DNA of 40,572 nt, taken from NCBI RefSeq assembly GCF_003334355.1, contig NZ_QOWP01000032.1; one strand, given 5' to 3'. Source of the DNA: Escherichia coli. Its GTDB lineage: Bacteria; Pseudomonadota; Gammaproteobacteria; Enterobacterales; Enterobacteriaceae. The notes beneath the pieces are model-generated. The model had not been told where the DNA came from and did not search any database. It worked only from the letters and a program-made list of their open reading frames with translations. Every line of letters begins with the position of its first letter. The first letter of the stretch is position 1. Of the stretch, positions 19,768-20,164 are shown piece after piece. Both the position numbers and the translations under genes were made by a program.

Positions 19768-20164
19768 GTTTATCCCTCTTTTCGGCCAAATAGTAGCCAG
19801 GCACCAACAGGTGCTATTAAAAGTGGAATGATACCGTTAGATGGTAAAAAAGCTAATTGTTATATTTTTTACGCTTACCATTTTTACTGGTCAGACGGTA
19901 AGTATTCACGATATGAATTCAATAAAATGAATTGTAAACTGTAACGATTGGCGGGCATAAACCTGTTTGTTGATGGTTTTTTGCGCATGAAAGTGTTCTT
20001 TAGATATTGACACTTTTGTTTAATCGTATCGTTCCCCAGTAGTGATTGAAATACCAATCAAAATTCCCCAAACAATTTGATTTTTTTATCATTAATCCTA
20101 TGGCATTGCCTCAATTTATAGCTAGACTGATCCCACTTTAAGTCTTTCCTTATCTAGGGTTTCT

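Follow-up and report, generated by a model that had tools for sequence, protein, structure and literature searches.

A divergent regulatory region between a sugar epimerase gene and wzzB at the his-proximal end of the Escherichia coli O-antigen region

Background

WzzB sets the modal chain length of the O antigen, and through it affects serum resistance and virulence. For the upstream region of its gene we compared Salmonella enterica and E. coli K-12, in both of which wzz follows ugd. The Salmonella locus, which we found by exact protein look-up, has an ugd-wzz gap of 142 bp that starts with the ugd terminator hairpin and contains no divergent gene. The corresponding ugd-wzzB gap of K-12 measures 145 bp, and K-12 has no epimerase gene at this place. 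PmrA and RcsB are named as the two known wzz regulators in Salmonella in a passage of PMC3572086, and activation of the Salmonella wzz promoter by both proteins is credited to Delgado et al. 2006 where PMC3572086 and PMC8129183 cite that work. The wzz gene of K-12 is reported, in a passage of PMC8129183, not to be under PmrA control. The RcsB box has been given as TN(G/A)GAN4TC(T/C)NA (PMC7913699).

Here we describe a different arrangement, in which a gene for a sugar epimerase lies back to back with wzzB across an AT-rich gap. The window, that is, the whole stretch of E. coli DNA that was analysed, is 40,572 nucleotides long, and all positions refer to it. On the pattern of conservation among relatives it seems likely to us that this gap codes for nothing and regulates the genes on both sides, through two back-to-back sigma-70-type promoters.

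Results and discussion

The gap and its flanking genes

At the his-proximal end of the E. coli O-antigen region the order is gnd, ugd, epimerase gene, gap, wzzB and hisIE:

15933-17339, plus strand: gnd (ORF list and PGAP)
17538-18704, plus strand: ugd (ORF list and PGAP)
18763-19767, minus strand: NAD-dependent sugar epimerase, left flank of the gap (PGAP name 'NAD-dependent epimerase')
19768-20164, no strand: divergent intergenic region between the epimerase gene and wzzB, 397 bp, GC 0.348
20165-21148, plus strand: wzzB, O-antigen chain-length determinant, right flank of the gap (NCBIfam NF012015, PGAP)
21204-21815, minus strand: hisIE (ORF list and PGAP)

The gap runs from the epimerase ATG (minus strand, at 19767) to the wzzB ATG at 20165. 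The RefSeq/PGAP annotation of identical E. coli genomes has the same two CDS borders and no feature between them. An earlier note on this DNA had described about 400 bp of AT-rich sequence separating the two divergent genes, and its coordinates prove exact. The GC content compares with 0.47-0.49 in the flanking coding DNA, 0.26-0.51 in the window's remaining intergenic gaps of 50 bp or more and 0.24-0.37 in the O-antigen cluster. The gap is AT-rich relative to its flanking genes, and in this it is ordinary among the intergenic gaps of the window.

WzzB matches the NCBIfam equivalog NF012015 with 556.8 bits (cut-off 267). The left flank is less clearly named: its matches to SDR epimerase/dehydratase families all fall under the NCBIfam equivalog cut-offs. 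Its nearest solved structure, PDB 5u4q (639 bits), is almost identical to it, and 6zl6/6zla are more distant. 5u4q was deposited as a dTDP-glucose 4,6-dehydratase, whereas PGAP has an epimerase here; the public names are inconsistent with each other. We take the protein to be a putative UDP-glucuronate 4-epimerase of the Gla/Uge type. In the E. coli O111 strain RM9322 (L002:2996-4000) the annotation makes this gene a pseudogene because of a stop inside it, and the gap and wzzB of that strain are 99% identical to those of the window.

Distribution and mosaic origin of the locus

Of 5426 complete E. coli genomes, 68 carry the gap, many of them O111, always on the chromosome and at full length or nearly so; it was recovered at high as well as at low BLAST sensitivity, and 68 is also the count at 65-70% sensitivity. 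One of the genomes with a gap identical to that of the window is E. coli ARL09/232 (NZ_CP049967.1, 60500-79500), in which wza, wzc, wcaC and wcaD are marked as pseudogenes and an IS1 lies beside a truncated mannose-1-phosphate guanylyltransferase gene upstream of the O-antigen genes.

Outside E. coli, the same layout, with ugd and the epimerase gene converging, the epimerase gene and wzzB diverging and hisIE beyond, was found in two genomes each of Citrobacter and Enterobacter and in one MAG. The Citrobacter genomes were retrieved with the epimerase protein, independently of the conserved block at 20037-20061. The gap lengths are as follows:

Citrobacter werkmanii: 408 bp
Citrobacter sp. FP75: 351 bp
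Enterobacter cloacae: 195 bp
Enterobacter asburiae: 193 bp
one MAG: 192 bp

When metagenomes were scanned for a 24-base pattern taken from the gap, 16 further loci came up, whose hisF-hisA DNA is closest to that of C. werkmanii (90%).

The window resembles different relatives in different segments. From ugd to hisIE, leaving aside the gap and wzzB, it is mostly 92-96% identical to Citrobacter-like loci (ugd 87% in L088) and 71-82% identical to K-12 where the latter has a counterpart. At hisA the relation is reversed, with 81% identity to the Citrobacter-like loci and 96% to K-12. The gap is 85-94% identical to Citrobacter-like metagenome loci and has only short matches to K-12. Compared segment by segment over 17340-23307, these identities imply that this E. 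coli lineage carries a block probably derived from Citrobacter, an import between genera with a recombination boundary in hisF/hisA. In a plasmid collection, only the 82 bp next to wzzB found matches, all in Salmonella records about 500 kb long, which therefore indicate no mobile-element or plasmid origin for the additional DNA.

The wzzB CDS fits neither side, at about 71% identity (69-72%) to the Citrobacter-like loci, which carry a different wzzB allele and whose DNA on either side of wzzB is mostly 91-96% identical to the window, and 68% to K-12. Most of its differences fall in the middle of the gene. The pattern resembles the replacement of one allele by another within surroundings that were conserved: the CDS is strongly diverged and its promoter region is not.

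Conservation within the gap

As a neutral yardstick we used the 4-fold degenerate sites of the epimerase gene and hisIE, where the identity of the two Citrobacter genomes to the window is 0.52-0.67. Three blocks of the gap, all shared with both Citrobacter gaps, lie above it, and the rest of the gap is at or under it:

19828-19864, no strand: conserved block, identity 0.89 to C. werkmanii and 0.81 to FP75
19922-20006, no strand: variable spacer with indels, identity 0.51 to C. werkmanii and 0.20 to FP75
20037-20062, no strand: conserved block, identity 1.00 to C. werkmanii and 0.92 to FP75
20083-20128, plus strand: conserved block, identity 0.93 to C. werkmanii and 0.80 to FP75

In a sliding window the spacer at 19922-20006 shows 42% identity, and by this comparison it is free to vary. 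In the alignment of E. coli with Citrobacter, conserved hexamers stand alongside spacer substitutions. Moreover, each side of the gap has a -10-like hexamer at a conserved distance from its gene. The candidate signals are:

19856-19851, minus strand: candidate epimerase -35, TTAGCT, with a 17-nt spacer to the -10
19833-19828, minus strand: candidate epimerase -10, TATCAT, with a predicted start site near 19821
19773-19780, minus strand: epimerase Shine-Dalgarno sequence AAGAGGGA, 5 nt upstream of the ATG
20083-20128, plus strand: canonical wzzB upstream core, conserved in the alignment with K-12 and Salmonella
20100-20105, plus strand: candidate wzzB -35-like ATGGCA, followed by a 17-nt spacer
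20123-20128, plus strand: candidate wzzB -10-like TAGACT, with a predicted start site near 20135
20155-20160, plus strand: wzzB Shine-Dalgarno region TAGGGT, invariant in 6/6 aligned sequences

The proposed epimerase promoter

Each of the seven lineages with the epimerase gene has TATCAT or TATGAT at a distance of 56-61 nt from its ATG. Both TTAGCT and TATCAT are conserved in E. coli and Citrobacter, and the spacer between them varies. RNA polymerase would bind at this pair and start near 19821, giving a leader of about 54 nt with a strong Shine-Dalgarno sequence, which is kept as CCTC (plus strand) in all orthologues. The predicted leader can form two short hairpins (z = -1.9 over 77 nt, -2.7 over 150 nt). 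The pairing of one of them is kept in FP75 through a two-sided change and lost in C. werkmanii, and we give it little weight.

The proposed wzzB promoter

Judged by alignment, the wzzB-proximal 80 bp or so are the canonical wzzB upstream region common to K-12 and Salmonella. The invariant TTTTTATCATTAATCCTATGGCAT (20083-20106) is identical upstream of Salmonella wzz(ST)/cld, and K-12, which reads TTTTTATCAcTtATCCTATaGCA, differs from it by three bases. In nine of nine lineages, Enterobacter included, a TA(A/G/C)ACT hexamer precedes the wzzB ATG by 34-47 nt. The distance is 36 nt in the window and Salmonella (TA(G/C)ACT for the two) and in K-12 (TAAACT), and TAGGGT is present in all three. In K-12 the homology extends over the last 80 bp or so of its gap, and nothing of 19768-20060 is found there. 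Compared with Salmonella, the window has a gap of more than twice the length, a divergent epimerase gene and an extra dyad at 20043-20060.

Polymerase would thus use the ancestral promoter of wzzB, which K-12 and Salmonella likewise have downstream of ugd. It would have a poor -35, ATGGCA, which matches the consensus at four of six positions in the window and at fewer in K-12 and Enterobacter, a -10, TAGACT, a start near 20135 and a leader of about 30 nt. Because both hexamers are weak, we read the invariant A/T-rich block at 20083-20099 as a putative UP element or activator binding site.

The wzzB end of the gap shows several small differences among relatives. Position 20125 gives TAGACT in the window, where O111, K-12, the two Citrobacter genomes and each of the 16 metagenome loci have TAAACT. 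The sole GATC (Dam) site of the gap, at 20129-20132, directly follows the -10-like hexamer; it is present in the window and O111 and absent in Salmonella, K-12 and the Citrobacter-like loci. Locus L101 has a 7-bp insertion at the wzzB Shine-Dalgarno region (the equivalent of about 20152-20158), which makes a perfect tandem duplication, ATCTAGG ATCTAGG. The 7-bp insertion of C. werkmanii (L003) and L098, just upstream of the wzzB ATG, is a diverged duplication. The insertions in L101 and in L003/L098 extend the wzzB leader to 43 nt.

Promoter scores and start-site data

Generic scoring does not single out these hexamers. With our own PWM the wzzB pair scores 7.57 and the epimerase pair 6.66, against shuffle maxima with a median of 8.3 and a 95th percentile of 10.8. 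The top plus-strand match is a different pair, TTCCCC/TATCAT, which at 8.89 is still under that 95th percentile. A consensus promoter scan returned none in the gap and a single promoter-like site, inside the epimerase CDS. Since neither kind of score exceeds that of shuffled DNA, we infer the promoters from conservation only. The expectation in the earlier note that the gap holds both promoters therefore keeps the backing of position-conserved -10-like hexamers on each side and of the conserved blocks, and gains none from the scans. As for external data, two Salmonella dRNA-seq start-site supplements have no wzz entry, and the literature searched gave no usable mapped wzzB promoter. We also considered a distal -35 for wzzB, TTGACA at 20007-20012, and rejected it; it has no -10 at 15-19 bp and reads TTTACA or ATTACA in relatives.

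Possible control of wzzB by RcsB or PmrA

The proteins that act on this promoter may be those known from Salmonella. It is a tentative possibility that RcsB and/or PmrA act on 20083-20106 and activate the weak promoter; if so, and we hold this equally tentatively, O-antigen chain length would be tied to envelope stress. In favor of such control, Salmonella has the same 24-bp core, base for base, and K-12, the strain reported to be PmrA-independent, differs from it at three positions. Furthermore, TATCATTAATCCTA (20087-20100) fits the RcsB box perfectly in its right half and abuts the -35. However, it has two mismatches to the box, both at key positions of the left half-site, and the exact box has no match in the whole window. 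The PmrA box has the consensus YTTAAK-N5-YTTAAK, and none is found upstream of the predicted -35; matches occur only at two or three mismatches. The best conserved PmrA-like repeat (two mismatches, 20137-20153) is in the predicted leader, downstream of the predicted start.

Possible silencing by nucleoid proteins

The earlier note had also suggested that the gap could be a site at which nucleoid proteins silence chain-length control. Xenogeneic silencing typically targets AT-rich imported DNA, and the gap, with its low GC content, its five A or T tracts of 5-7 bases each and its place in an ugd-to-hisIE segment that looks wholly imported from Citrobacter, has something of that character. Yet its AT content is inside the range of the other intergenic gaps of the window, and the imported flanking genes have 47-50% GC. 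The high-affinity H-NS motif, of consensus TCGATAAATT, has only two matches, both with two mismatches. Conservation confined to blocks of 25-46 bp with neutral DNA between them is a signature of specific sites and not of composition. Our measurements thus lend silencing no specific support, and we think it unlikely that the gap is mainly a nucleation site from which H-NS or another nucleoid protein silences wzzB, the epimerase gene or both. Silencing could also coexist with the promoters.

The DNA between the candidate promoters

Both -10-like hexamers fit an Enterobacter gap of only 193-195 bp, where they are about 80 bp apart and keep their positions, compared with 290 bp in E. coli and Citrobacter. 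The Enterobacter gap lacks the variable middle and both dyads described below. The gap of the window is long only because about 200-225 bp separate the two core promoters. These 225 bp or so would be mostly unconstrained spacer, together with two dyads that probably bind regulators:

19904-19918, no strand: dyad 1, ATTCA-N5-TGAAT, candidate operator
20037-20061, no strand: conserved block CAGTAGTGATTGAAATACCAATCAA, which holds dyad 2
20043-20060, no strand: dyad 2, a perfect TGATTG-N6-CAATCA, candidate operator with its centre about 83 bp upstream of the predicted wzzB start

Relatives keep the arms of dyad 1 and differ at each of its five central bases. A second perfect ATTCA-N5-TGAAT (ATTCATAGAATGAAT) is present at 29227-29241, in the gap just upstream of an ORF starting at 29301. 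At up to one mismatch the window has seven matches to this pattern, where 2.8 are expected.

The block around dyad 2 (20037-20062) is identical at 26/26 and 24/26 bases in the two Citrobacter genomes and absent from K-12, Salmonella and Enterobacter; among the versions of the gap, only that of Citrobacter and E. coli has the two dyads. Across the 16 metagenome loci dyad 2 is invariant by construction, because its block was the search pattern. One of the loci, L089 (metagenome contig ERZ1026931.563), has only a 66-residue fragment of the epimerase left between ugd and wzzB. It keeps the 154 bp upstream of wzzB (20011-20164 of the window) at 94% identity although most of the epimerase gene is deleted, which suggests that dyad 2 may be part of wzzB control.

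A GntR/FadR-type sugar-acid regulator could be one candidate for dyad 2. Its minus strand, TGGTATTTCAA, agrees at 9/11 positions with TGGTATAACAA, the exuR-proximal site of K-12. We compared the gap with the DNA upstream of exuT, uxaC and exuR of K-12 with an ExuR/UxuR site in mind and rejected that assignment, 9/11 being within the agreement estimated for chance. Consensus scans of the gap for CRP, IHF, Fis and RcsAB gave chance-level matches only, none of them convincingly conserved. That an undescribed regulator uses the dyads as operators and links the supply of the epimerase product (probably UDP-galacturonate) to the control of O-antigen chain length seems rather improbable.

Coding and RNA content of the gap

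The gap has 6-14 stop codons in each reading frame, and conservation together with family searches ruled out five small ORFs as genes. The longest is the following:

19639-19944, plus strand: 101-codon ORF with a TTG start, not a gene; overlaps the 5' end of the epimerase gene on the opposite strand

The earlier note had doubted this ORF, and rightly so. It is frameshifted in E. coli O111, because a T tract just upstream of the candidate epimerase -35 (19865-19870) has six T in the window and seven in O111, and it contains stops in both C. werkmanii and FP75. The same base accounts for the gap lengths of 397 bp in the window and 398 bp in O111. PGAP does not annotate the ORF. ORFs of 57, 35 and 30 codons are likewise disrupted in relatives, and an NCBIfam search of the three longest ORFs (101, 57 and 31 codons) found no family match. 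A permissive Rfam scan of 18500-21500 returned nothing in the gap; its sole match (18700-18743, E = 0.46) is at chance level. The consensus promoter/terminator scan found no terminator-like sites, and a repeat search of 19700-20230 found only short chance-level pairs.

That the gap hides a small gene, either the 31-codon ORF at 20046-20141, which is open in C. werkmanii as in E. coli, or a small RNA from the conserved block 20037-20135, whose part 20037-20128 is conserved above synonymous sites, is highly improbable: the ORF has a TTG start without a Shine-Dalgarno sequence and a stop in FP75, the conserved 140-nt block folds no better than shuffled versions (z = -1.27), the downstream half of the block is common to K-12 and Salmonella, where it immediately precedes wzzB, and the ORF disruptions and the Rfam and terminator results above point the same way. 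The gap is non-coding, as the earlier note had it.

Conclusions

The region between the epimerase gene and wzzB is an ordinary divergent regulatory region and not a new kind of element. Divergent promoter regions in general have an AT-rich gap with two outward core promoters and operator-like dyads between them, and the gap described here is not distinct from them in kind. The two conserved dyads, as candidate operators, are its only undescribed items. The three conserved blocks can serve as a guide for where to cut in reporter and deletion constructs. The importance of the region is modest; E. coli O111 has this version of the locus. Since the wzzB core is identical to that of Salmonella and differs from that of K-12, a testable prediction is that this wzzB, like the Salmonella gene and in contrast to that of K-12, may be responsive to Rcs or PmrA signals.
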